A program made the position numbers and the translations under genes. Below, piece after piece: positions 9,820-30,251 of a stretch of 43,501 nt of DNA. This DNA comes from a virus (lineage: Duplodnaviria; Heunggongvirae; Uroviricota; Caudoviricetes), in IMG/VR virus record IMGVR_UViG_2547132420_000011. One strand, written 5' to 3'. How positions within the stretch are numbered: position 1 is the stretch's first letter; every line of letters begins with the position of its first letter. The notes under the pieces were generated by a model that worked only from the letters and a program-made list of their open reading frames with translations, had not been told where the DNA came from and ran no database searches.

Positions 9820-11823
9820 ATGATTATGAGTGAAAATGATACAACCCCAAAGAAGTCTACAAGCCAGATTAACAAAGCGGTATTCTTTACATCTGCTTTG
9901 CTAATTTTCCTTCTTGTCGCCTTTGCCGCCGTATTCCCGGATGTCGCCGACAAAAATTTTAAACTACTTCAGCAACAAATCTTCACGAATGCCAGCTGGT
10001 TCTACATACTTGCTGTGGCCCTGATTTTACTGAGCGTCACGTTCCTTGGACTCTCACGTTACGGTGATATAAAGCTGGGCCCAGACCATGCGCAGCCTGA
10101 TTTCAGCTACCACTCCTGGTTCGCGATGCTTTTTTCGGCAGGGATGGGGATCGGCCTGATGTTCTTTGGCGTTGCCGAACCTGTGATGCATTATCTTTCG
10201 CCACCTGTCGGCACTCCAGAGACCGTTGCGGCAGCGAAGGAAGCCATGCGCCTGACGTTCTTCCACTGGGGTCTGCACGCATGGGCAATTTATGCCATCG
10301 TGGCGCTGATTCTGGCCTTTTTCAGTTACCGTCACGGTCTGCCTTTAACGCTGCGTTCTGCGCTCTATCCCATTATCGGCGATCGCATTTACGGGCCTAT
10401 AGGCCACGCGGTTGATATCTTCGCCGTGATAGGCACTGTCTTTGGCGTTGCAACATCGCTGGGTTACGGTGTATTGCAGGTGAATGCCGGTTTGAACCAT
10501 CTTTTCGGCGTGCCCATCAATGAAACGGTACAGGTCATTTTGATCGTGGTCATCACGGGGTTAGCGACGATTTCGGTGGTGTCCGGCCTGGACAAGGGAA
10601 TACGCATCCTGTCTGAGCTTAATCTGGGCCTGGCGGTGTTGCTCCTGGCGCTGGTCTTGTGCCTGGGTCCCACTGTGCTTCTGCTGAAGTCATTTGTGGA
10701 AAATACGGGTGGTTATCTGTCGGAACTGGTGAGTAAAACGTTCAACCTTTACGCGTATGAACCCAAGTCGAGCAACTGGCTGGGGGGCTGGACATTATTA
10801 TACTGGGGATGGTGGCTTTCATGGTCGCCGTTTGTAGGTATGTTCATTGCACGCGTTTCCCGCGGCAGGACAATTCGTGAGTTCGTGACTGGCGTGTTGT
10901 TTGTTCCCGCCGGCTTTACGCTCATGTGGATGACGGTGTTTGGAAACAGCGCCATCTATCTCATCATGAACCAGGGCGCCACTGACCTCGCCAATACCGT
11001 TCAGCAGGATGTTGCGCTTGCCCTGTTTAATTTCCTGGAGCATTTCCCGTTCTCTTCCGTGCTGTCATTCATTGCAATGGCGATGGTCATCGTCTTCTTT
11101 GTAACGTCTGCTGATTCGGGGGCAATGGTTGTGGATACTCTGGCATCAGGTGGGGTGGCAAACACGCCCGTCTGGCAGCGAATTTTCTGGGCATCGCTCA
11201 TGGGCGTTGTTGCTATTGCCCTGCTGATCGCAGGGGGGCTGAGTGCGTTGCAAACCGTAACGATAGCGAGTGCATTGCCCTTCTCAGTTATCTTATTAAT
11301 ATCCATATACGGACTGTTAAAAGCCCTGCGTCGGGATTTGACCAAGCGTGAAAGCCTTAGCATGGCGACTATTGCTCCTACGGCTGCACGTAACCCAATT
11401 CCCTGGCAGAGAAGGTTACGCAATATCGCGTATTTGCCGAAGCGCTCTCTTGTGAAACGTTTTATGGACGACATTATCCACCCCGCCATGACGCTGGTTC
11501 AGGAGGAACTTAACAAGCAGGGAACGATAAGCCACATCAGTGACGCCGCCGAGGATCGTATTCGCCTTGAAGTCGATTTGGGCAACGAGCTGAATTATAT
11601 ATATGAAGTGAGGCTTCGCGGGTATAACTCACCGACCTTCGCGCTCGCTGCGCTGGATAATGATGAGCAGCAGAGTGAACAACATCGATATTATCGCGCT
11701 GAAGTCTATCTCAAAGAGGGCGGCCAAAATTATGATGTAATGGGCTGGAATCAGGAACAGCTGATTAATGACATACTGGACCAGTACGAAAAACACCTGC
11801 ACTTCCTGCATCTGGTTCGTTAA
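9820..11823 (+). CDS. BCCT-family transporter, BetT-like (choline/betaine/carnitine)
   Basis: 667 aa, multiple TM helices; motifs GIGLMFFGVAEP and WTLLYWGWWLSWSPFVGMFIARVSRGRTIREF typical of BCCT transporters; hydrophilic C-terminal tail as in BetT; ATG at 9826 is an alternative start. Confidence 0.85.
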   Translation: MIMSENDTTPKKSTSQINKAVFFTSALLIFLLVAFAAVFPDVADKNFKLLQQQIFTNASWFYILAVALILLSVTFLGLSRYGDIKLGPDHAQPDFSYHSWFAMLFSAGMGIGLMFFGVAEPVMHYLSPPVGTPETVAAAKEAMRLTFFHWGLHAWAIYAIVALILAFFSYRHGLPLTLRSALYPIIGDRIYGPIGHAVDIFAVIGTVFGVATSLGYGVLQVNAGLNHLFGVPINETVQVILIVVITGLATISVVSGLDKGIRILSELNLGLAVLLLALVLCLGPTVLLLKSFVENTGGYLSELVSKTFNLYAYEPKSSNWLGGWTLLYWGWWLSWSPFVGMFIARVSRGRTIREFVTGVLFVPAGFTLMWMTVFGNSAIYLIMNQGATDLANTVQQDVALALFNFLEHFPFSSVLSFIAMAMVIVFFVTSADSGAMVVDTLASGGVANTPVWQRIFWASLMGVVAIALLIAGGLSALQTVTIASALPFSVILLISIYGLLKALRRDLTKRESLSMATIAPTAARNPIPWQRRLRNIAYLPKRSLVKRFMDDIIHPAMTLVQEELNKQGTISHISDAAEDRIRLEVDLGNELNYIYEVRLRGYNSPTFALAALDNDEQQSEQHRYYRAEVYLKEGGQNYDVMGWNQEQLINDILDQYEKHLHFLHLVR

Positions 11824-11886
11824 CAGCAACATGCCGCCACAGAGGCGGCATTTATTTATCCCGGCTGCAATATGAGGGAATGCAGA

Positions 11887-13164
11887 ATGATTTCACGCTG
11901 GAAATGGATGCTGAAGCAGACATTTAAAAAACTATGGTTCAGGGCAACGTTATTCGCAATTGTCGCAATAATAACGGCCCTTTTATCAATTCTTTTTAAA
12001 TCAATGATACCTGAGTCGGTTTCCGTGAAGGTTGGTGCGGAAGCAGTCGATAACATTCTGAACATACTGGCATCGAGTATGCTGGCAGTGACCACATTTT
12101 CGCTGAGCATCATGGTCACAGCCTACGGTTCAGCCACTACTAATGTGACTCCCAGAGCTACTCGTTTAGTTGTTGAAGACGTCACCACACAAAATGTACT
12201 GGCCACCTTCATCGGTTCTTTTCTCTTCAGTCTGGTAGGGATTATTGCCCTCAATATGGGAGCTTATGGAGAAAGGGGGAGAGTCATTTTATTCATTGTA
12301 ACACTGGTTGTCATTGCCTTAATCCTCATCACATTGCTTCGCTGGATACAGCATTTGACCTCTCTGGGGAGGGTTGGTGAGACAACGGCAAAAGTAGAAC
12401 AGGCGGCCATCGAAACATTTATTGCGAGAGCAAGAAATCCCTGTCTCGGCGGATATCCATGGCTTGAGAACAATGAACAGCCGAAAGGAACGGTTGCAGT
12501 TTATCCGAAAAAGATTGGCTATATTGAATATGTTGATATGGTGAAACTCAGCAAGCTGCTGACCAATGATCCCCGTCATGTATACCTCGTGGCGCAGCCG
12601 GGCAGTTTCATACATCCGTCCACGCCAGTTTTGTACCTGAGTCAGGGCCAGGAGTCATCAATCAGCACCGATTTACTTGAGACGATTATTGTCTCGGATG
12701 TACGTTCATTTGCTCAGGACCCCCGATTTTGTCTTAGCGTCATGGCCGAAATAGCCTGCCGAGCCCTTTCCCCCGCAGTGAACGATCCTGGAACCGCCAT
12801 TGATGTCATTGGCAGAGGTGTACGTATACTTTCCGCTTACGCGCAGAATAAATCTGATGAAATAGAAGTGAAATATCCTTCTGTACATGTTGCACCACTT
12901 CAGAATAACGATCTACTTGAAGACTTTTTCTCACCTGTTGCGCGCGATGGTGCCAGTATGAGGGAAATTCAGATAAGGGTACTTAAAGGACTGTCGATGC
13001 TGAGTAAGGGTTGGCCTGGAATTTTTGCTGAAGCCGCACAAACCCTAGCATTTGAAACATTAGAGCATGCTACTCGTGCTGACCATATAGATTCTGACAG
13101 ATATCTAATAAAATCAATTTATTATAATTTATTTAGTGGCGAAGATTCTAATAAAAAACCATAG
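11887..13164 (+). CDS. Membrane protein with N-terminal TM helices and soluble C-terminal domain (DUF2254-like, from memory)
   Basis: ORF 11872..13164; ATG at 11887 has a better GAGGGA spacing; four predicted TM segments in the first 170 aa. Confidence 0.65.
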   Translation: MISRWKWMLKQTFKKLWFRATLFAIVAIITALLSILFKSMIPESVSVKVGAEAVDNILNILASSMLAVTTFSLSIMVTAYGSATTNVTPRATRLVVEDVTTQNVLATFIGSFLFSLVGIIALNMGAYGERGRVILFIVTLVVIALILITLLRWIQHLTSLGRVGETTAKVEQAAIETFIARARNPCLGGYPWLENNEQPKGTVAVYPKKIGYIEYVDMVKLSKLLTNDPRHVYLVAQPGSFIHPSTPVLYLSQGQESSISTDLLETIIVSDVRSFAQDPRFCLSVMAEIACRALSPAVNDPGTAIDVIGRGVRILSAYAQNKSDEIEVKYPSVHVAPLQNNDLLEDFFSPVARDGASMREIQIRVLKGLSMLSKGWPGIFAEAAQTLAFETLEHATRADHIDSDRYLIKSIYYNLFSGEDSNKKP

Positions 13165-13294
13165 TTGCGGAGCAAGCGATACGGTTGTTGGCAAGTCAAG
13201 GGCAAAGCATTCGCGTGAGAGTGGGCGTCTGCTTTGTGCCAGAAGCGGACATACGTAACTTATGATACGCATCGCCAATCATCCGTTTCAAACA

Positions 13295-14176
13295 TCAACG
13301 CGGAAACGTTTTAAGAATGTAATCCCGAACATAGGCGGTTCGGCTGTTATTAGCCGTCCTTTTGTTCCAGACCAGATAAAGATGATTAGTCGGAGCGAGG
13401 TCTGCAGGTGTCACTGAAATCAGGCGACCACTTTTCAGGTCATTGTCACAGTGATAATCCGGCAGCACTGTCCACCCGTGGCCGTCACAGACCAAGTCGC
13501 GGATAATACGTAAATCCGGAATGGTGAATGTAGCCTGCATCTCAGGGGCTCTCTGAAACATGGAGGCCCAGAGCGCTCTAATCAGTGGCAACTCTTCGTC
13601 ATAAGCAATCAGCGGTAATGAGGCAAGCGTTTCAGCACCAGGTTCTGATCCGATGATCTCTGACATGGCGGGAGCATGAACAAGGAGCATGCGTTCAGTC
13701 AGTAGATGTGCATAGCCGTACAGACGGTCATCAGGCATAGATGCGGTAACAGCGAGATCGGCGCTCCCGTCATGCAAAAGGGAATAAATACGTTGCTTAT
13801 TGCCGGTATGAAAGCGTAGGCGATACCCCTCCTTCATTAGTGGAGCCATTACTGTCCCAAGCCGGGAATGAATAAAATCTGGCGGTCCTGCCAGATTAAT
13901 TGTTCCCCCACGTACAGAGCCTGACCGGAAAGAGGACAGCTTTTCTTCCAGACCATCAATGAAGGGTGAAACTGAGCGGGCAAGCTCATCCGCAGCTTCG
14001 GTTGCCGTCACGCCTCTGGCCTGCCTGATAAACAGACGCTTACCAACCAGAGTCTCAAGAGACTGGATATGCTGTGACGCCGCGGGCTGAGTGATGCCCA
14101 GTAGTTCTGCCGCCTTTGAAAAGGAGCCAGAGCGATAGGCCTCAAGAAACGTTCGCAGATGGCTCAGATGGCTCAT
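13295..14176 (-). CDS. LysR-family transcriptional regulator
   Basis: 293 aa; N-terminal HTH (SFSKAAELLGITQPAASQHIQSLE), LysR substrate-binding-like C-terminal domain; start overlaps the upstream ChaC-like gene stop. Confidence 0.85.
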   Translation of the reverse strand: MSHLSHLRTFLEAYRSGSFSKAAELLGITQPAASQHIQSLETLVGKRLFIRQARGVTATEAADELARSVSPFIDGLEEKLSSFRSGSVRGGTINLAGPPDFIHSRLGTVMAPLMKEGYRLRFHTGNKQRIYSLLHDGSADLAVTASMPDDRLYGYAHLLTERMLLVHAPAMSEIIGSEPGAETLASLPLIAYDEELPLIRALWASMFQRAPEMQATFTIPDLRIIRDLVCDGHGWTVLPDYHCDNDLKSGRLISVTPADLAPTNHLYLVWNKRTANNSRTAYVRDYILKTFPR

Positions 14177-14865
14177 AGTGAAGCGCCTCGCTGATGAAGT
14201 TTATCGTTACAGGGAGCCTCATGCAGAGCAAGGGCCAGTTCACTCACGTAATCATCCCGTATTCCCAACGCACCCAGAGTGGCCTGCAGTTTCCATACAT
14301 AATCTGCATTCGTGCCAATGTCTCCACGGGCAGATGCGATGCTCAACGCTACGGTCGCTGTAAGATTGTCCTGTTCATAATGCGGATGCAGTCTGTCTGA
14401 TACGAAAGCCAGCGCCTGAATTTCCTTACCGTTTCCTAGCGAAACGTCTGCCCAGACCGGACGGTAAAGACCGGTTATCATCTCGCGCGTCCAGACAATT
14501 TCCAGCTCATTAATAAGAGTCGATTCCGGCAGTCTGAACGCAATACCTTCGGTAATTCCACCTTCGTCGAGCGATAACATCCTGCCGGGGACATCAGGAG
14601 TCGCTCGTCCGGATATCAAACGAATGCAGAAACTGCGCTGCCATCCTTTCAGACGGGCCCGTTGCATTTCTTCAATCGCCAGCACGGGATTCCACATCAA
14701 TGACCCGTAGGCAAATATCCAGACAGGAGCACCCGTCGGGCGCTCCTCCAGAGTAGAGTTCATTGATGCGCGTATTTTTTCAGCGTCCCAGAGCATATTC
14801 GCCGGGAGCAGCGCTTCATGCACCCTGACAAATGTGCCATTAAGCATATTTTCACGGGTAAGCAT
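14173..14865 (-). CDS. ChaC-like gamma-glutamylcyclotransferase
   Basis: 230 aa; motif FAYGSLMWNP characteristic of the ChaC family. Confidence 0.8.
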   Translation of the reverse strand: MLTRENMLNGTFVRVHEALLPANMLWDAEKIRASMNSTLEERPTGAPVWIFAYGSLMWNPVLAIEEMQRARLKGWQRSFCIRLISGRATPDVPGRMLSLDEGGITEGIAFRLPESTLINELEIVWTREMITGLYRPVWADVSLGNGKEIQALAFVSDRLHPHYEQDNLTATVALSIASARGDIGTNADYVWKLQATLGALGIRDDYVSELALALHEAPCNDKLHQRGASL

Positions 14866-14876
14866 ATAACCTCCCT

Positions 14877-16076
14877 TTACTGGCCTACGATTTTAACCTG
14901 TTGAAATTTACGACTGTGGCTGCGACGGATTTGTGCAAGCAGCAACAGCAGGCCGAGCAGAGAAACAATCGCACCGCTGATACCGGTATACACGATACCG
15001 GCGTGGCTTATAGTAATGCTGCCCAGTACTGATCCCAGCGCTATACCTGAGTTGAAGCCCGCAATATTCAGGCCGGCAGCAACACCATGCGCATGAGGAG
15101 CATGTTGCTCAGCGACACCAATCAGACGGGCCTGCAGTGCCGGCACTGCGGCAAATGTCACCATACCCAGTAGCGCAACCAGAATGCCCATGCTCACCGG
15201 TGAGGATGACAGCAGCCACATACCAAGCACGACAACAACAATGCCGCTAATGATGAGTATATTGGCACGATTAACCCCCATGCTGTCGGTAAGTTTCCCA
15301 CCAAGAATATTACCTACCGCAGCTGTAATACCGTAAACCAGCATAAACAGACTCACCGTTGCTCCGGTAACCCCTGTCACCTGCGTCAGAATAGGTGCGA
15401 TAAAGGTGTAATCCGTAAACGAGCCTGCATACGCCAGCACCGTAACCAGCGCGCCGGCCAGCAACTTACGGTTAAACAGCATGCCGATATTCTGCATTGC
15501 TGAGTCACTATGTTCACCGGGCACGCTGCGTACGGGATCTTTCATACCGAACAACAGTCCAAGGAATCCGAACGCGCCAAAAGCGGCAATAGCGCCGAGA
15601 ACTGGACGCCATGAGACCACCCCCCCCAACCATGTACTCAGCGGTACGCCGATTGCCATCGCCAGAGTAAAGCCACCAAATACCACAGCCACCGCTCTGC
15701 CTGCTTTACCCGGTCCAGCAAGACGAGCTGCGGTACTGGATGCCGCAGCCAGAAACAGGCCGTGTCCCAGACCAGCAATGAACCGCGCTAACAGGAGCTG
15801 AGGTAATGTGGCTGCAAACGCGGCCGCCAGACTACCGGCAGTAAACACAACGGCAGTTGTAAGCATTACATTTTTCCGGCTCCAGCTTGCTGTCAGCGCA
15901 GACAGTACGGGTGCCGCGAACGTTGCCCCCAGTGCATAGGTTGTAACCGCTGCCCCGGTCTGCTCCACACCCACACACAACCCCTGAGCCATAACGTCTG
16001 TCAGCCCAATGGGGACAAATTCCGCGAGTCCGAGCGCAAAGGCACTGATAGTAAACACATAAATAACAAATGGCAT
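14877..16076 (-). CDS. MFS transporter
   Basis: 399 aa, about 12 TM helices, Gly/Ala-rich hydrophobic composition typical of the major facilitator superfamily. Confidence 0.85.
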   Translation of the reverse strand: MPFVIYVFTISAFALGLAEFVPIGLTDVMAQGLCVGVEQTGAAVTTYALGATFAAPVLSALTASWSRKNVMLTTAVVFTAGSLAAAFAATLPQLLLARFIAGLGHGLFLAAASSTAARLAGPGKAGRAVAVVFGGFTLAMAIGVPLSTWLGGVVSWRPVLGAIAAFGAFGFLGLLFGMKDPVRSVPGEHSDSAMQNIGMLFNRKLLAGALVTVLAYAGSFTDYTFIAPILTQVTGVTGATVSLFMLVYGITAAVGNILGGKLTDSMGVNRANILIISGIVVVVLGMWLLSSSPVSMGILVALLGMVTFAAVPALQARLIGVAEQHAPHAHGVAAGLNIAGFNSGIALGSVLGSITISHAGIVYTGISGAIVSLLGLLLLLAQIRRSHSRKFQQVKIVGQ

Positions 16077-22823: not shown

Positions 22824-22960
22824 AATCTTAACTACAATATGATTCATTTTGATGATTGTTTCATAAGAAACAGTGAAGTAAGATCTAAGAGGAGTTAAAT
22901 TTTATACAGTATAATCATAATATTGCAGCAAGGTGGTTATAATTGAAAGAATATTTAGAT

Positions 22961-24418
22961 ATGAATACATCTCATGTAAGAGTTGTTACTCATATGTGTG
23001 GGTTCCTGGTTTGGCTCTATAGTCTTTCAATGTTGCCACCAATGGTTGTAGCATTGTTTTATAAAGAAAAAAGCCTGTTCGTTTTCTTTATAACTTTCGT
23101 TATATTTTTTTGCATTGGTGGCGGAGCGTGGTATACAACTAAGAAATCTGGCATTCAATTACGTACCCGTGATGGGTTTATTATAATTGTAATGTTTTGG
23201 ATTTTGTTTTCTGTTATTAGTGCATTCCCTTTATGGATTGACTCAGAACTTAATTTAACGTTCATTGATGCTCTGTTTGAAGGGGTTTCTGGAATAACAA
23301 CAACAGGAGCAACTGTAATTGATGATGTTAGTTCATTACCTCGGGCATATTTGTACTATCGGTCACAGTTAAATTTTATAGGTGGTTTAGGAGTTATTGT
23401 TCTGGCGGTTGCTGTATTGCCATTATTGGGTATTGGTGGTGCAAAGCTTTATCAGTCAGAAATGCCGGGGCCATTTAAGGATGACAAACTCACTCCCCGC
23501 CTGGCCGATACGTCACGGACACTGTGGATAACTTATTCTTTATTAGGTATTGCTTGTATTGTCTGTTATAGACTTGCAGGAATGCCTTTGTTTGATGCTA
23601 TTTGTCACGGGATTTCCACAGTTTCGCTTGGTGGTTTCTCAACTCATAGCGAGAGTATCGGATATTTTAATAACTATTTGGTTGAGCTGGTGGCTGGTTC
23701 TTTTTCCCTGCTATCGGCTTTCAACTTCACTCTTTGGTATATTGTTATTAGCAGGAAAACGATAAAACCTTTAATCAGAGATATTGAACTTCGTTTCTTT
23801 CTGTTAATAGCCTTAGGGGTGATCATTGTTACCTCTTTCCAGGTCTGGCATATAGGTATGTATGACTTGCATGGAAGTTTTATTCATTCGTTTTTTCTTG
23901 CCAGCTCCATGCTCACTGATAATGGTTTAGCTACGCAGGATTATGCAAGTTGGCCCACGCACACGATAGTGTTTTTGCTGTTGTCAAGTTTCTTTGGGGG
24001 ATGTATAGGTTCAACTTGTGGTGGAATTAAGTCACTTCGATTTCTTATACTTTTCAAACAAAGCAAACACGAGATAAATCAGCTTTCTCATCCCAGAGCG
24101 TTGTTGAGTGTAAATGTAGGAGGGAAGATAGTTACAGATCGTGTAATGAGGTCTGTATGGAGTTTCTTTTTTCTTTATACTCTCTTCACGGTGTTTTTTA
24201 TACTGGTGTTAAATGGTATGGGATATGATTTTCTTACATCATTTGCAACAGTGGCTGCATGTATTAATAATATGGGATTAGGTTTTGGGGCTACTGCATC
24301 GTCATTCGGAGTGCTTAATGACATTGCAAAATGTTTAATGTGCATAGCTATGATTCTTGGTCGCCTTGAAATTTATCCTGTTATTATATTGTTTTCAGGT
24401 TTTTTTTGGCGCTCCTAA
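22961..24418 (+). CDS. trkG: Potassium uptake protein TrkG (TrkH/TrkG family)
   Basis: ORF 22943..24418; ATG at 22961 gives 485 aa starting MNTSHVRVVTHMCGFLVWLYSL, matching E. coli Rac-prophage TrkG from memory; AT-rich gene. Confidence 0.9.
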   Translation: MNTSHVRVVTHMCGFLVWLYSLSMLPPMVVALFYKEKSLFVFFITFVIFFCIGGGAWYTTKKSGIQLRTRDGFIIIVMFWILFSVISAFPLWIDSELNLTFIDALFEGVSGITTTGATVIDDVSSLPRAYLYYRSQLNFIGGLGVIVLAVAVLPLLGIGGAKLYQSEMPGPFKDDKLTPRLADTSRTLWITYSLLGIACIVCYRLAGMPLFDAICHGISTVSLGGFSTHSESIGYFNNYLVELVAGSFSLLSAFNFTLWYIVISRKTIKPLIRDIELRFFLLIALGVIIVTSFQVWHIGMYDLHGSFIHSFFLASSMLTDNGLATQDYASWPTHTIVFLLLSSFFGGCIGSTCGGIKSLRFLILFKQSKHEINQLSHPRALLSVNVGGKIVTDRVMRSVWSFFFLYTLFTVFFILVLNGMGYDFLTSFATVAACINNMGLGFGATASSFGVLNDIAKCLMCIAMILGRLEIYPVIILFSGFFWRS

Positions 24419-24555: not shown

Positions 24556-25350
24556 ATGAGCGAGAAATTAAAGATAGTCTATCGCCCATTACAAGAATTG
24601 TCACCGTATGCGCACAACGCCAGGACGCACAGCCCTGAGCAGGTGGCACAACTGGTAGAAAGTATTAAGCAATTCGGCTGGACTAATCCGGTGCTGATTG
24701 ACGAAAAGGGCGAAATTATTGCGGGTCACGGTCGTGTTATGGCGGCTGAAATGCTCAAAATGGATTCTGTTCCGGTCATTGTTCTGTCTGGCCTGACGGA
24801 TGAGCAGAAAAAGGCGTACCGCCTGGCAGATAATCGCCTGCCGATGAATGCTGGCTGGGATGAAGATCTGTTGCGGATGGAGCTGTCGGACCTAATCAAT
24901 GCTGATTTTGATGTCTCCCTGACAGGCTTCATCCCGACAGAAATTGATGAACTGTTGACGGATGTTTTGCCCGGTACAGGAAATGAGGAGGAGCCGTATA
25001 CGACGAAAATTGATACGCCTGTTTATGAGCCGTCGGGCGGTAAACCGGATATCAGTGAACTGTACGACGATACGAAAACTCAGGAGCTGATCAGCCGGAT
25101 ACGTTCGGCGTCCCTTGATCCTGATATTGAGAAATTCCTCCTGTGTGCGGCAGAACGTCACACAGTGTTTAATTTCAGCAGAATTGCGGACTATTACGCT
25201 CATGCCCCCGCTGAAATTCAGTGCCTTTTCGAGGAGTCGGCGCTGGTGATCATTGATTATCAGCAGGCTATTGAAAATGGATTTGTCCGAATGACGCAGC
25301 GCATGGTGGAGATCATGCATGGCGGGGAGGAGGAGGAGGAATATGCGTGA
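24556..25350 (+). CDS. ParB-like nuclease domain protein (full-length YnaK-like)
   Basis: 264 aa; N-terminal ParB/Srx-like region (VYRPLQELSPYAHNARTHSPEQV ... GHGRVMAA); C-terminus ends GGEEEEEYA encoded by a GGAGGAGGAGGAGGA repeat. Confidence 0.8.
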   Translation: MSEKLKIVYRPLQELSPYAHNARTHSPEQVAQLVESIKQFGWTNPVLIDEKGEIIAGHGRVMAAEMLKMDSVPVIVLSGLTDEQKKAYRLADNRLPMNAGWDEDLLRMELSDLINADFDVSLTGFIPTEIDELLTDVLPGTGNEEEPYTTKIDTPVYEPSGGKPDISELYDDTKTQELISRIRSASLDPDIEKFLLCAAERHTVFNFSRIADYYAHAPAEIQCLFEESALVIIDYQQAIENGFVRMTQRMVEIMHGGEEEEEYA

Positions 25351-26275
25351 TGATTTTTGCGCCTTTATTCTGACTCACGGGCGACCGGACAAAGTTCTGA
25401 CTTACCGGACGTTGCGTCGTGCTGGCTATACCGGGAAAATTTTTATCGTTGTTGATGATGAAGATAAGACACGGCATCAGTACATGGCTGAATTTGGTGA
25501 ACAGGTGCTGGTATTTTCCAAAGCCGATATTGCCAGTCGTTTTGACGAAGCCGATAATTTTGGTGATCGCCGCTCAATTTTTTACGCCCGTAATGCCTGT
25601 TTCGACCTGGCAAAACTGGTCGGGTGTAAATACTTCATTCAGCTCGATGATGATTATCACGAGTTCCAGTTTCGGGTGGATCGCAACTATGACCAGGCCT
25701 ATTTCCCGATAAGGAAACTGGATGCGATCCTTTCTGAAATGCTGGCGTATTACGAATCAATACCCGCGCTTTCCATCGCTATGTCGCAGGGCGGGGATTT
25801 TCTTGGTGACAATGGCGGCCATGCTTCGTGGGTGAAACGCAAGGCAATGAACAGCTTTATCTGTTCGGTTGATCGACCGTTCTCATTCATGGGGCGCATT
25901 AACGAGGATGTGAATACGTACACGAATCTCGGTCGCTGTGGTGAATTGTTTATGACGATCGGTGCTGTCCAGTTAGGGCAGAAACAGACGCAGAAAAACA
26001 GCGGCGGAATGACCGAGCTGTATCTGGATTCCGGAACCTACGTTAAAAGTTTTTACTCCGTCATGTATTCGCCGTCGTGCGTAAAAATCTCACTGATGGG
26101 TGCCAGCCATAAACGCATTCACCATCAGGTCACCTGGAACAACGCTGCAGTAAAAATCCTTCACGAAAAATACAGGAAGAAGACACCCTGCATATCAATG
26201 GGGGTGACAAATGATTCCGTATTCGAAAGTCGAGTCTCTGGCAGCGTGCCGGATGACTGCACAACAAATCGCTGA
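25343..26275 (+). CDS. Hypothetical protein; possible nucleotide-sugar transferase-like fold (DxD-type acidic motifs), unassigned
   Basis: ORF 25319..26275; ATG at 25343 lies directly after the GGAGGA repeat; motifs FIVVDDEDKT and FIQLDDDYHEF; overlaps the ParB-like stop by 8 nt. Confidence 0.55.
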   Translation: MRDDFCAFILTHGRPDKVLTYRTLRRAGYTGKIFIVVDDEDKTRHQYMAEFGEQVLVFSKADIASRFDEADNFGDRRSIFYARNACFDLAKLVGCKYFIQLDDDYHEFQFRVDRNYDQAYFPIRKLDAILSEMLAYYESIPALSIAMSQGGDFLGDNGGHASWVKRKAMNSFICSVDRPFSFMGRINEDVNTYTNLGRCGELFMTIGAVQLGQKQTQKNSGGMTELYLDSGTYVKSFYSVMYSPSCVKISLMGASHKRIHHQVTWNNAAVKILHEKYRKKTPCISMGVTNDSVFESRVSGSVPDDCTTNR

Positions 26276-26462
26276 CGTTCTGGATGTTGATCTGAACCGA
26301 CTGAAAGAAAATCGGGAAGCAATGACAGATTTTTATGCGGCCATCCGTAAGGGCAGAGCGAAAGGTGAAGCCGAGTTACGAGCGGCATTGTTTAAGCTTG
26401 CCAGAAAAGGGGATGCCTTTGCTCTGCGCGAACTACTCAGGGTGGATAAAAATCAGGACTAA
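26211..26462 (+). CDS. Small HTH-like protein upstream of terminase
   Basis: 83 aa; ATG at 26211 preceded by GGGGGTGA but overlaps the upstream gene by 65 nt (internal ATG at 26253 would overlap 23 nt); stop 4 nt before terS. Confidence 0.4.
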   Translation: MIPYSKVESLAACRMTAQQIADVLDVDLNRLKENREAMTDFYAAIRKGRAKGEAELRAALFKLARKGDAFALRELLRVDKNQD

Positions 26463-26465
26463 CTG

Positions 26466-27560
26466 ATGAGCAGACCGGACTGGGGGGCGTTGCAGCAGGA
26501 GTATATTGCTGAATACACCCGCTCCGGTATATCTCCGGTGGCATGGTGTGAAGCAAGGGGACTGAACTACGCAACAGCCCGTCGTTACATCAAAAAAACT
26601 CCGAAAAATGCGCAGAAAGAAATGCGCAAAACTGCGCAAAAAAGTGCGCGAAAAAAAACTGCGCAGACTGCGCAAAGGCAGAACAGAAAATCTCAGAAAA
26701 AAAAGGCTGTATCCGATGCACTCCTGATTGAGGGGGACACGGAAGAAATTTCGTTCTGCCCCGATGAATTCGGTATTTCTGACCAGCAGGCAAAATTCGC
26801 CATGTTGGTTGCTCAGGGGAAAAAGCCGACAGAGGCATACCGACTGGCTGGTTATGAGGGGCAAGGTGCGACAGCTAACAGCAACGCCAGCCGTATGCTT
26901 AGAAATGCCAGGGTTTATCGTGCTATCAGCTACTTCCGCAATCAGTACCAGAAACGCTATACCGCAGACCTGGATTTACTGGTGAGCCAGTTGATGGCCA
27001 TTGTCCAGGCCGACCCCAATCAGTTGGCACAATTTCGCCGTGTTAACTGCCGTTATTGCTGGGGCGAGAATCATCTCTACCAGTGGCGTGATATTGCAGA
27101 ATTCGATAAGGCTGCGGCACAGGCCTCCAGAGATGGTAAACCCGAGCCGGAATATGGAGGCCTCGGCTTTGTTGATAACGCCATACCCAATCCTGATTGC
27201 CCGAAGTGCTGCGGTGAGGGAACAGGACAGCTTTATATGGCTGATACCACACTGCTTGATGGGGATGCGCGGCAATTATATGCAGGGTCAAAGCTCGGAA
27301 AATACGGTGTTGAGATCCTGCTGGAGGATAAGGCTGCCGCCCGGCGTGAATTGTTGCGTTTGCTTTCTGCTGGCGGGGCATTATGTGCAGATAAGCGGCT
27401 ACAGGAACTGGAAATTGAACGGCGCAGAATAGAGAACCAGAAGCTGCGCAAAGAGATCGAAACGGTGGAGGATAATGAACATCCCCAGCCTGTGGCGATC
27501 AATATTAATGTGGTTGATGCCAGATTAAGGAGTGATGAAGATGATCTCTCCGACGCTTAA
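26466..27560 (+). CDS. Terminase small subunit with extended Cys-rich C-terminal region
   Basis: 364 aa; N-terminal HTH, Lys-rich repeat, then motif GATANSNASRMLRNARVYRAI typical of small terminases (from memory); C-terminal Cys clusters CRYCWGENH and CPKCCGEG. Confidence 0.7.
   Translation: MSRPDWGALQQEYIAEYTRSGISPVAWCEARGLNYATARRYIKKTPKNAQKEMRKTAQKSARKKTAQTAQRQNRKSQKKKAVSDALLIEGDTEEISFCPDEFGISDQQAKFAMLVAQGKKPTEAYRLAGYEGQGATANSNASRMLRNARVYRAISYFRNQYQKRYTADLDLLVSQLMAIVQADPNQLAQFRRVNCRYCWGENHLYQWRDIAEFDKAAAQASRDGKPEPEYGGLGFVDNAIPNPDCPKCCGEGTGQLYMADTTLLDGDARQLYAGSKLGKYGVEILLEDKAAARRELLRLLSAGGALCADKRLQELEIERRRIENQKLRKEIETVEDNEHPQPVAININVVDARLRSDEDDLSDA
26609..26674. repeat. Six TGCGC(A/G) hexamer repeats in A-rich context inside terS (candidate pac/TerS-binding site)
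   Basis: TGCGCA at 26609, 26623, 26633, 26660, 26669 and TGCGCG at 26645, located by codon position; encodes KNAQKEMRKTAQKSARKKTAQTAQ. Confidence 0.45.
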
Positions 27561-28842
27561 TGTGCCTCAGGCGCGATTTCTTTCAATGCCCCATAAATTT
27601 AAAGCCTATATTGCTGGTTTTGGCTCGGGCAAAACATGGGTTGGGTGTGGCGGCATATGCAAGGGGATTTGGGAGCATCCAGGTATAAATCAGGGATATT
27701 TTGCGCCAACGTATCCCCAAATTCGCGATATTTTTTACCCTACAGTGGAAGAAGTTGCTGCTGACTGGGGATTGAACGTAAAAATTAATGAGGGAAATAA
27801 AGAGGTTCACTTTTATTACGGACGCCAGTATCGGGGAACCACTATCTGCAGATCGATGGAGAAGCCACAAACGATCGTCGGTTTCAAAATTGGTAATGCG
27901 CTGGTGGATGAACTGGACATTTTGCCGAAGGAAAAAGCCAGAACGGCGTGGCGCAAGATAATTGCGCGTATGCGTTATAAGATTGATGGACTTCGCAACG
28001 GTATTGACGTTACAACCACGCCGGAAGGATTCAAATTTGTCTACGAGCAGTTTGTTAAAGCCGTGCGTGAAAAAACAGATCTGGCCTCACTGTATGGTCT
28101 GGTGCAGGCATCTACTTTCGATAATGAAAAGAACCTGCCAGCAGATTACATTCCTTCACTTCTTGAATCATACCCTCCAGAGCTGATTAAAGCCTATCTT
28201 CTAGGACGGTTTACTAACCTGACAAGTGGTACTGTTTACCATCAGTTTGACCGGAAACTGAATAATTGCGAAGAAGTGGAGCAGCCAGGGGAGCCGATTT
28301 ATATTGGGATGGATTTTAACGTTGGAAAGATGGCGGGAATCGTCCATGTGCTGCGTTTGGGGCTTCCATGTGCGGTAACTGAAATCATCAATGCCTACGA
28401 TACGCCGGATATGATCCGCCTCATTAAAGAACGCTTCTGGCTGTATGACGGGCATGATTACCGGAAAGTGAGGGAGATTTATATTTATCCAGATGCTTCC
28501 GGAGATTCCAGAAAATCAAGTAACGCAAGTACGACGGATATAGCCCAGCTTAAGCAGGCAGGTTTTAACGTTGTGGTGAACAGCTCGACCCCGCCAGTAA
28601 AAGATCGCGTTAACTCAATGAATGCAATGTTCTGCAATGCCAATGGTGAGCGTCGCTATAAAGTTAATGTGAAGCGTTGTCCGGTATATGCCGAATCTCT
28701 GGAGCAACAGGTCTGGGATGATAAGGGGGAGCCTGATAAAAAATCTGGCAATGATCACCCGAATGATGCCGGAGGTTATTTCATCGTTAAGCAATTCCCT
28801 ATTGTCAAACCGACCGGAAGAGTCACATCACTTCGGATTTAA
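27535..28842 (+). CDS. Terminase large subunit
   Basis: ORF 27532..28842; ATG at 27535 preceded by AGGAG; Walker A-like AGFGSGKTW; C-terminal nuclease-like acidic residues; overlaps terS 3' end. Confidence 0.9.
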   Translation: MKMISPTLNVPQARFLSMPHKFKAYIAGFGSGKTWVGCGGICKGIWEHPGINQGYFAPTYPQIRDIFYPTVEEVAADWGLNVKINEGNKEVHFYYGRQYRGTTICRSMEKPQTIVGFKIGNALVDELDILPKEKARTAWRKIIARMRYKIDGLRNGIDVTTTPEGFKFVYEQFVKAVREKTDLASLYGLVQASTFDNEKNLPADYIPSLLESYPPELIKAYLLGRFTNLTSGTVYHQFDRKLNNCEEVEQPGEPIYIGMDFNVGKMAGIVHVLRLGLPCAVTEIINAYDTPDMIRLIKERFWLYDGHDYRKVREIYIYPDASGDSRKSSNASTTDIAQLKQAGFNVVVNSSTPPVKDRVNSMNAMFCNANGERRYKVNVKRCPVYAESLEQQVWDDKGEPDKKSGNDHPNDAGGYFIVKQFPIVKPTGRVTSLRI

Positions 28843-28844
28843 TT

Positions 28845-30251
28845 ATGGCTGATATATCAACACCCAACCTCGACTATAACGATATGCTGGAGGCGTGGGA
28901 TATTAACGACGCATTGATGGGCGGTACGCTTGAAATGCGCAGGCAGGGGGAAAATTATCTCCCCAAATGGCCTAATGAAGATGAAGACGCTTATAAAAAA
29001 CGCCTGTCTGTGGCTACGTTACTTCCTGTGTATGAAGAAAGCATCAAACAAAATATTGGGCGCATATTTGCAGAGCCGACAGTATTGAGTGAGGAAACGC
29101 CGGAAAAAATCAGGGAATATGCAGAAAATATCGACATGGAGGGGAGCCGACTGGATGTGTGGGCGCAGCAATTTTTCAGTCTCGCATTTCAGTATGGTGT
29201 GGCACATGCGCTGGTGGACTATCCACGAACGGATATGAACGAGATTCGGACAAAAGCCGATGAAAACGCGGCCGGTGGTCGCCCGTACGTTACGATGCTG
29301 AATCCACGCCAGGTTATTGGATGGAAATCGAAAGTTGAAAAAGGGAAAGTTGTTCTCACTGATTTGCGTATAAAAGAGGTCATCATTATTGATGGTGATG
29401 ATTTCGGGCAGAAGAAGGTGGAGCAGATCCGCCATATTATGCCCCGTCGAGTAGAAATTTATCGACGCAGCGAAGGTACTAATGGCGAATCTGTCTGGAT
29501 GCTTCATGAGTCATGGAATACCAGCCGTGATGATATTCCTCTGGTAACACTGTATACGAAGAAAACAGGGTTTATGCGTGGTACACCGCCATTGCTTAAT
29601 CTTGGCTTGCTGAATATCAAGCACTGGCAAAGCCAGAGCGAGCAGGACAATATTCTTCATGTTGCCCGCGTTCCATTGCTGGTGGCCTACGGGCTGGACA
29701 GGAATGAAGAACTGACGGTTGGTGCATCCACGGCTACGATTTTTGAGGACAGAACAAAAAATGGCCTCGAATATGTTGAACATAGTGGCGCAGCGATAGA
29801 ATCTGGCGAAACATCACTTGAGAAGCTGGAAAATCAGATGCGTCATGCCGGCGCTAAACTTCTGCGGGCTGAAAATACATCCACCAAATCTGTTGATCAG
29901 ACTAATGAAGAGCGGATGCAGGAACACTCGCCGCTTTATACAATGGCGAACTCCCTCGAAGATGCCCTCGATAATATTCTCCAGATAATGGCGGAATGGA
30001 GCGGAGAGAGTTGCGGTGGCAATGTGGATGTGCGCACTGAACTGGATGTATCTGCCCAGGTGTTTGACTCATCCTCCGCGCTGGCTGTTCAGTCATTGCG
30101 TCAGGGCGGTGATATACGTCAGATTGATGCGGTTCGGGTGTTGCAGGCGTTGAAATTTATCGATCAGGATTCCCGTCCAGAGGATGTGATCGATGAATTA
30201 AAAAATCAGAGTGTAATGTTGATGGAAATCAATGATGCAAACCGTGAATGA
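28845..30251 (+). CDS. Portal protein
   Basis: 468 aa immediately downstream of terminase large subunit; size and position typical of portal. Confidence 0.75.
   Translation: MADISTPNLDYNDMLEAWDINDALMGGTLEMRRQGENYLPKWPNEDEDAYKKRLSVATLLPVYEESIKQNIGRIFAEPTVLSEETPEKIREYAENIDMEGSRLDVWAQQFFSLAFQYGVAHALVDYPRTDMNEIRTKADENAAGGRPYVTMLNPRQVIGWKSKVEKGKVVLTDLRIKEVIIIDGDDFGQKKVEQIRHIMPRRVEIYRRSEGTNGESVWMLHESWNTSRDDIPLVTLYTKKTGFMRGTPPLLNLGLLNIKHWQSQSEQDNILHVARVPLLVAYGLDRNEELTVGASTATIFEDRTKNGLEYVEHSGAAIESGETSLEKLENQMRHAGAKLLRAENTSTKSVDQTNEERMQEHSPLYTMANSLEDALDNILQIMAEWSGESCGGNVDVRTELDVSAQVFDSSSALAVQSLRQGGDIRQIDAVRVLQALKFIDQDSRPEDVIDELKNQSVMLMEINDANRE

Follow-up and report, generated by a model that had tools for sequence, protein, structure and literature searches.

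It has long been asked how small terminases recognise viral DNA. A 2022 review describes binding of the small terminase subunit (TerS) to the packaging (pac) site as mostly weak, non-specific or undetectable in vitro, with an unclear mechanism (PMC9611059). In phage P1, pac is 161 bp long and has seven hexamers inside the pacA gene, and synonymous recoding of these hexamers cuts packaging about 9-fold (PMC10028697). In phages SPP1 and SF6, bent DNA of the A-tract type is believed to be wrapped around the TerS ring (PMC6316719, PMC4737164). It is already known that a pac site can lie inside terS and that P1 has hexamer repeats there. Here we describe an array of six hexamers inside the terS gene of a 43,501-bp stretch of viral DNA (IMG/VR record IMGVR_UViG_2547132420_000011, hereafter the window). 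The element belongs to the Rac-like lambdoid prophages, has a P22-family capsid gene and was found in 906 of 5,426 complete E. coli genomes. We consider it likely that TerS's own N-terminal helix-turn-helix (HTH) domain recognises the six hexamers as its cognate DNA sites, and that together they make up the recognition part of the pac site.

Reading of the sequence and an exact search placed TGCGCA at 26609-26614, 26623-26628, 26633-26638, 26660-26665 and 26669-26674, and TGCGCG at 26645-26650. The start-to-start steps between the six are 14, 10, 12, 15 and 9 bp. This agrees with an initial annotation made from the sequence alone, which had reported five TGCGCA and one TGCGCG, 9-15 bp apart, in A-rich DNA inside terS. 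The consensus around each copy is AAAA-N-TGCGCA-R-A, and neither form of the hexamer contains GATC. The array occupies nt 144-209 of terS, the codons for amino acids 48-70. TGCGCA occurs 18 times in the window, and the shuffle mean is 18.05. Five of those 18 are packed into 66 bp (Poisson P for at least five in 66 bp = 1.2e-10, or ~5e-6 after multiplying by all window positions), and no second TGCGCA cluster was found anywhere in the 43,501 bp.

The terS product is annotated as a terminase small subunit in PGAP and in phage records. It matched PHROG 51 ('terminase small subunit') over residues 1-364 with an E-value of 7e-75, and Pfam Terminase_2 over residues 122-316 with 36.5 bits against a gathering score of 26.1. 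AlphaFold (AF2), run on the monomer with a 127-sequence alignment, gave a model with a mean predicted local distance difference test (pLDDT) score of 72. The predicted layout comprises a three-helix N-terminal domain (residues 1-45), a disordered linker (46-92) and a Terminase_2 core. Helices 6-20, 24-30 and 35-38 of the N-terminal domain had pLDDT values of 70-81, and residues 1-80 match PHROGs 51, 370 and 1711. The Terminase_2 DNA-binding domain is internal in this protein, preceded by an extra HTH and the linker whose coding DNA holds the array (Table 1).

The N-terminal HTH is homologous to that of P1 PacA. Its profile aligned with residues 3-41 of PacA when compared with PacA residues 1-60 (hhalign probability 92%, E 5e-7), and the window N-terminus cross-matched PHROG 1711, the P1 PacA family, at E 1.4e-5. 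In the P1 record (NC_005856), TGATC(A/G) is found at nt 194, 201, 213 and 228 and again at nt 324, 336, 347 and 375 of pacA, flanking an annotated integration host factor (IHF) site and the pac cleavage positions (nt 256-285 of pacA).

We compared the repeat and the HTH across relatives whose diversity came from a metagenome scan, viral scans and protein look-ups; a genome-contig scan with very specific patterns gave 4 loci. In what follows, L numbers are our handles for loci. A Serratia fonticola homolog (L086), with a core 54% identical to that of the window, shares the window's HTH type and carries five TGCGCA. Counted from the ATG, four of the five have the same offsets as in the window (144, 158, 168 and 204), and two are in another reading frame, encoding M-R-N and L-R-T. 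Homologs from Superficieibacter, Klebsiella quasivariicola and two metagenomes (L237, L238, L183 and L239) have HTHs 50-66% identical to the window's and 3-7 TGCGCA in the same location, despite linker peptides that cannot be aligned with that of the window. In pPE4 (L002), whose core is 93% identical to the window's, the HTH differs and the motif is GTTTCCAC/GTGGAAAC. Since pPE4 differs in both HTH and motif while the far more distant Serratia protein shares both, the repeat motif in these sequences follows the N-terminal HTH and not the TerS core.

We distinguished at least 10 HTH types. In each, a particular 6-9 bp repeat lies ~130-245 nt from the ATG, as a rule with direct copies first and inverted copies after them. 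The pPE4 and Mangrovibacter type has GTTTCCAC twice and then GTGGAAAC two to four times, and the Erwinia type has GGGGCA three to five times and then TGCCCC twice. Further types carry GGTTCGCA twice then TGCGAACC twice, GGTACGCA four or five times then TGCGTACC, ATCCGTCCA twice then TGGACGGA, ACCGACCA four times then TGGTCGGT twice, GTTGCCAC/GTGGCAAC, and GTGGTAA/TTACCAC. A single motif can occur in several frames and encode unrelated peptides, as with GGTTCGCA, which encodes both K-V-R-K and G-S-Q-T. Five types were resampled against the most frequent k-mer of any sequence, using a codon table from the gene itself (TGCGCA in the window and in Serratia L086, GTTTCCAC, GGGGCA and GGTTCGCA), and P was between 0 and 0.02.

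The covariation extends to single positions. The window's HTH type is also found on a PHROG 370 core, which is Stx-phage-like, lacks Terminase_2 and the predicted zinc ribbon, and is unrelated to the window core. In E. coli phage PhiR12_3, whose helix 3 reads GTARRYIKL, the HTH is followed by seven TGCGCA, of which some are read TGC GCA, in the third frame. Klebsiella phage RothC (SSAKRYIKV) has two TGCGAATTCGCA and a TGCGAA, and Pasteurella phage Pmp11 (STAKRYIKK) has nine TGCGAA. Scanning 470 loci with an HTH pattern yielded 167 unique HTH-plus-array sequences. Those with A-R-R-Y in helix 3 (75 unique sequences from 293 loci) carry TGCGCA 3-8 times (median 5) and TGCGAA/TTCGCA at most once, whereas those with A-K-R-Y (73 unique sequences) carry TGCGAA/TTCGCA 4-8 times (median 5) and TGCGCA at most once. 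The two distributions do not overlap, with zero exceptions in 148 unique sequences; Fisher's test gave 4e-44, which is not a true probability because the sequences are related. Both classes are present on both the Terminase_2/zinc and the PHROG 370 cores, and some pairs of R and K proteins are identical through residue 36 and differ only in helix 3. Across this set, then, one residue (R39 in the window) tracks one base pair, that at hexamer position 5. The initial annotation had suggested a pac or TerS recognition site by analogy with P1, and its suggestion gains support from this covariation, from the PacA homology and from the equivalent position of the P1 hexamers.

A third class, A-R-T-R in helix 3 (17 unique sequences, from Stx2a phages), has four or five GATCAT in 12-bp tandem together with one or two TGCGCA. 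An example is the Stx2a-converting phage Stx2_EH2086 (L247 1633..1685), which with 40 similar loci shares the HTH type and has NTARTRIKM as helix 3. In it, the unit CGATCATGAAAT is repeated four times in 12-bp tandem, every unit containing a GATC Dam site, and TGCGCA occurs twice. This repeat is a candidate P1-like pac site for Stx2a phages.

The SSAKRYIKV helix and its TGCGAATTCGCA repeat occur together on two unrelated cores, in a K. pneumoniae prophage with the Terminase_2/zinc core (L240 401..700), whose cassette is that of phage RothC, and on a PHROG 370 core (L248 455..760). Such sharing, as far as these two loci go, indicates exchange of HTH and array as a unit. We lean towards a broader interpretation of the same kind, in which a PacA-like HTH and its own 6-9 bp array in the linker DNA form a portable packaging-specificity cassette, sampled here at several hundred enterobacterial phage and prophage loci and swapped among at least 3 unrelated cores. 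Its code would be readable: an Arg-to-Lys change would retarget TGCGCA to TGCGAA, and other helices would pair with GATCAT, GTTTCCAC, GGGGCA, GGTTCGCA and others.

The array also encodes a repetitive peptide, KNAQKEMRKTAQKSARKKTAQTAQ, and the initial annotation had cautioned that the DNA repeat may simply reflect it. Its description of Lys-rich K-T-A-Q units is roughly right for five of the six copies, which are read xxT GCG CAx and encode N/T/S-A-Q/R, but fails for the second copy, which is read ATG CGC AAA in another frame and encodes M-R-K. While the hexamers occupy two frames in the window, they are found in all three across relatives (334, 65 and 13 sites). When we resampled synonymous codons for the 40-residue peptide using the codon usage of the window's own genes, at least five TGCGCA arose once in 200,000 trials (P = 5e-6). 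In a set of 55 unique alleles of the E. coli type, taken from 201 loci, 19% of hexamer sites were variable, compared with 47% of spacer sites (Fisher P = 0.03) and 73% of sites in the rest of the linker (P = 8e-8). The consensus of these alleles is TGCGCA at all six array positions, and intact copies per allele range from 3 to 8. Frame usage, codon resampling, this conservation and the inverted copies of other types, which encode unrelated peptides, answer the caveat: the repeat is a DNA signal and not a mere mirror of the peptide. Because the linker is predicted to be disordered and so weakly constrained as protein, there is room in it for a second code at the DNA level. The terS of Rac-SA53 (L001 2912..3200), annotated as a fusion by deletion, lacks the N-terminal HTH and keeps two of five hexamers intact, the others reading TTCGCA, TGCGCT and TGCCCA. 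Although it is a single case, this is possibly a sign of relaxed constraint.

A footprint of a low-complexity K/T/A/Q peptide, left by replication slippage and without function in the DNA, is for these reasons very improbable. Five of six copies do share one frame and encode x-A-Q or x-A-R, allele copy number shifts by gain and loss of a TAQ unit, and Tandem Repeats Finder reports periodicities of 10-36 bp. Yet copies in other frames encode M-R-K, L-R-T, V-R-K or C-A, codon choice is far from random, and the hexamer is kept where the peptide cannot be aligned (L239, L249), in a segment that is otherwise highly variable; nor does the pairing of R or K with C or A have a peptide-level explanation. 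We therefore rejected a peptide-only origin. The hexamers are palindromes, and they could instead act through nucleic-acid structure, as mRNA hairpins that tune terS translation or as antisense-strand terminators. The RNA fold of 26590-26700 has a z of -2.7 against shuffles, three intrinsic-terminator-like hairpins with T runs lie on the minus strand at 26609..26675, and direct and inverted copies in other types could pair. But the minimum free energy structure accounts for 3% of the ensemble, the centroid is almost unpaired, the stems are 6 bp, and the terminator-like hairpins are a by-product of palindromes adjoining A runs. Structure would let the motif drift by compensatory change, whereas the hexamer is kept in distant relatives and tracks a protein residue, and the L239 array, seven direct copies of TGCGCAAA, is not hairpin-like. 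Of the explanations considered, this is the one we credit least.

Two alternatives accept that TerS binds the array. Binding through the N-terminal HTH might serve regulation (autorepression, a roadblock on terS or the late operon, or TerS assembly), with the true pac or cohesive-end (cos) site elsewhere. In SPP1, the TerS that binds pac is also a repressor of its own synthesis (PMC6316719), and the window array lies ~140 nt inside the open reading frame (ORF), where a bound protein could block transcription. We regard this as unlikely, given that the P1 equivalents are pac and recoding them lowers packaging, and that the known role of sequence-specific TerS binding is recognition of pac or cos; the two roles are not mutually exclusive. 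A promoter or operator role for the array was rejected, as no sigma-70-like site was found in 26000-27000. The array might otherwise be a cosB-like anchoring site of a cos phage, comparable to the lambda R sites. In lambda-like phages the R sites are read by the TerS recognition helix, helix and R site covary among lambda, 21 and N15, and the N15 site rR2 lies inside the TerS gene (PMC4669245). Against this, the large terminase subunit (TerL) of the window is of the Terminase_6N/6C kind and not of the lambda GpA or HK97 type, and no IHF-like site was found near the array (26400-26900). The head module, with its DUF4055 portal, Mu-F/SPP1 gp7-like head protein and P22-family capsid, is of a kind typical for headful phages, in P1 it is a headful system that the homologous HTH serves, and the Jerseyvirus relatives of the TerL are reported to be headful and pac-type. 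A cosB-like role is highly unlikely on these grounds. The 83-aa TerS-like ORF just upstream of terS was also considered as the reader of the array and rejected: its HTH is nearly the same across loci with differing motifs, and it is missing in several. It is kept upstream of TerS in several motif types, is absent at some loci and does not covary with the motif.

TerL itself was 40-55% identical in pairwise comparisons to the TerL of Jerseyvirus, Dhillonvirus and Kagunavirus siphophages. Jerseyvirus is reported to use headful packaging with pac initiation, as determined by PhageTerm and pulsed-field gel electrophoresis (PMC10783031). This pairwise kinship may favour pac over cos.

The observations that weigh against our interpretation of the array as the pac site read by the TerS HTH are of several kinds. 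The sequences are related and the HTH and linker adjoin, so part of the covariation could be linkage; against this objection, the motif persists where HTH identity is down to 50%, and the R/K switch occurs between HTHs that are otherwise nearly the same. Single hexamers are not invariant, with TGTGCA and TGCACA variants common and copy number varying as above. In SPP1/SF6, a single HTH binds weakly and non-specifically, and the repeats in pac have little influence on binding (PMC4737164). We did not find three of the features of P1 pac in the window: GATC in the hexamers, the IHF consensus (WATCARNNNNTTR, up to one mismatch, 26400-26900) and a clear two-cluster layout. The window TerL had no similarity to P1 PacB detectable by BLASTP (E 0.82), and the matching phage records (vB_EcoS-*) are in-silico prophage predictions from clinical isolates.

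With these points in view, we still favour recognition of the array by TerS. The steps that we infer, set out below, are that TerS physically binds the array with the avidity of an oligomer, that the DNA bends, that the cut is made nearby and that packaging is headful. TerS is predicted to be a ring-forming Terminase_2-type protein in which each subunit would bear a PacA-like HTH on a flexible linker of ~45 residues. Several tethered HTHs would occupy neighbouring TGCGCA copies, which are about one helical turn apart (9-15 bp). The A-tract-rich segment is probably bent, and specificity would come from avidity. Bound TerS would recruit TerL, which would cut nearby, and headful packaging would proceed. 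The site would be written into the DNA for the disordered linker and, because it sits there, HTH and site would be inherited and exchanged as one cassette.

The remainder of TerS is unusual as well. The best Foldseek match of the internal HTH was the SF6 TerS DNA-binding domain (4zc3; TM 0.74 on the target, probability 0.98), followed by the TerS proteins of NV1 and PaP3, with weak Foldseek E-values throughout. By sequence, phmmer against solved structures gave a marginal match of TerS to the Pam5 small terminase HTH (E 0.13) and no match for TerL. The initial annotation had called the Cys-rich C-terminal half atypical, citing CRYCWGENH and CPKCCGEG. Both motifs are present, and they belong to a conserved four-Cys insertion in the Terminase_2 core: C195, C198, C245 and C248 are unchanged in all 127 TerS homologs, and the AF2 model is rich in strands at residues 188-286. 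The 2022 review mentions zinc fingers in TerS only for herpesvirus TerS (PMC9611059). Among loci L237-L246, the TerL partner of this TerS family varies, including Terminase_6 proteins of 423-436 aa, proteins of 545-552 aa and, in L246, Terminase_3. The C-terminal tail of TerS is not the same in the window type as in the pPE4 type, an indication that the tail is matched to its TerL partner.

Gene order around the array is trkG, a ParB_N-domain protein, a TET-associated glycosyltransferase (TAGT), the 83-aa ORF, terS, terL, the DUF4055 portal and a Mu-F-like head protein. As in Rac, trkG lies between the lysis and packaging modules. The ParB_N and TAGT genes (the latter 'GREB1-related' in PGAP) stand directly upstream of the packaging genes. 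The order TAGT, 83/85-aa ORF, TerS recurs in the distant relatives L239, L242, L243 and L246, and in L238 a ParB_N-methyltransferase takes the place of TAGT. These upstream genes may be a DNA-modification module coupled to packaging. Cargo genes, named from the annotation of a 99.9% identical genome, encode a BCCT transporter, a DUF2254 protein, a LysR regulator, a gamma-glutamylcyclotransferase and an MFS transporter.

Table 1. Features of the window bearing on the array, with positions and the basis of each assignment.
Feature	Position	Strand	Basis or remark
Cargo genes and trkG	9820..16076, 22943..24418		
ParB_N-domain protein	24556..25350		
TAGT	25319..26275		
83-aa ORF, TerS-like HTH fragment	26211..26462	+	Matches C-terminal part of PHROG 309 'terminase small subunit', E 8e-23
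terS, small terminase subunit, 364 aa, holds the array	26466..27560	+	Pfam Terminase_2; PHROG 51
N-terminal PacA-like HTH coding segment, aa 1-45	26466..26600	+	AF2 model; PHROG matches; hhalign
Predicted recognition helix A36-T-A-R39-R40-Y41-I-K-K44	26571..26597	+	Homolog alignment; R39 codon 26580-26582
Predicted disordered Lys-rich linker, aa 46-92, embeds the array	26601..26741	+	AF2 pLDDT <50
Hexamer array, candidate pac / TerS recognition site	26609..26674	.	TGCGCA x5 + TGCGCG x1
Terminase_2-type HTH and long oligomerisation helix, aa 99-181	26760..27008	+	Pfam, AF2 helices, Foldseek
Predicted four-Cys (CxxC...CxxC) zinc-ribbon insertion, C195, C198, C245, C248	27048..27212	+	Invariant Cys; AF2
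TerS C-terminal tail	27400..27560		
terL, large terminase subunit	27532..28842	+	Pfam Terminase_6N, Terminase_6C
Portal protein	28845..30251	+	DUF4055 / PHROG 145

We found no publication on this array, on a family-wide pairing of HTH and motif or on the R/K rule, although our coverage of the literature was incomplete and this is weak evidence of novelty. Searches on PhiR12_3, RothC and Pmp11, or on TGCGCA with terminase, found nothing relevant. The question of DNA recognition by small terminases can be approached cleanly in this TerS family, in which a classical HTH forms a separate domain, its cognate site is present in several copies, and naturally occurring specificity variants differ by a single residue and a single base pair. 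Because the prophage is common and the same HTH type occurs in Stx2a-converting phages, the predicted pac site is relevant to transduction, to how toxin and cargo genes are mobilised and to the design of delivery vectors based on phages. If the cassette interpretation is true, one could predict from sequence where pac sites lie and which packaging cross-talk to expect (satellites, lateral and generalized transduction), and could deliberately reprogram packaging specificity.

Among the closest described systems, P1 shares several features with the window. In both, hexamer repeats lie within the small-terminase gene just 3' of the HTH segment (nt 194-375 in P1, nt 144-209 in the window), and the third helix of the homologous N-terminal domain is NTARRYLR in P1 against ATARRYIKK in the window. 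The two hexamers have the palindromic form TG..CA in common, and each has copies in more than one reading frame. The window array is a candidate P1-like TerS recognition (pac) site with a new hexamer, at which packaging would initiate. It differs in having TGCGCA in place of TGATCA/G, so Dam-methylation control is not expected, and in forming one cluster of six where P1 has 4 + 3 flanking the IHF site and the cut; a relative, L249, shows a 5 + 2 split. The rest of the window TerS, a Terminase_2 core with a predicted zinc ribbon, is not PacA-like.

Other systems resemble the window in part. As in P22 and Sf6, the site would lie within the small-terminase gene of a headful phage, so that site and reader travel together (PMC9611059, PMC11260489), but P22 pac is a single asymmetric 22-bp sequence, its TerS belongs to a different family, and TerS binding has been hard to demonstrate in vitro. 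Published work on ICP1/PLE pac was uninformative for this layout. Lambda cosB (R3, R2, R1; gpNu1 winged HTH) likewise has repeated short sites read by an N-terminal HTH of TerS, with copies in direct and inverted orientation. Staggered nicking at cos, a GpA-type TerL and IHF dependence are lambda's, and its R sites lie upstream of the TerS gene, outside its coding sequence, and are read by a TerS of an unrelated fold family. SPP1/SF6 G1P, the founding Terminase_2 protein, belongs to the same Pfam family as the window TerS, whose internal HTH resembles the SF6 DNA-binding domain. The SPP1/SF6 pac (pacL-pacC-pacR) overlaps the 5' part of the TerS gene and has short repeats ('boxes'), as in the window, whereas the window array lies 144 nt inside the gene and overlaps no promoter. 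Unlike the SPP1/SF6 protein, the window TerS has an additional, separate N-terminal HTH, and because the recognition helix of this extra domain covaries with the repeat, the comparison argues for true sequence-specific reading.

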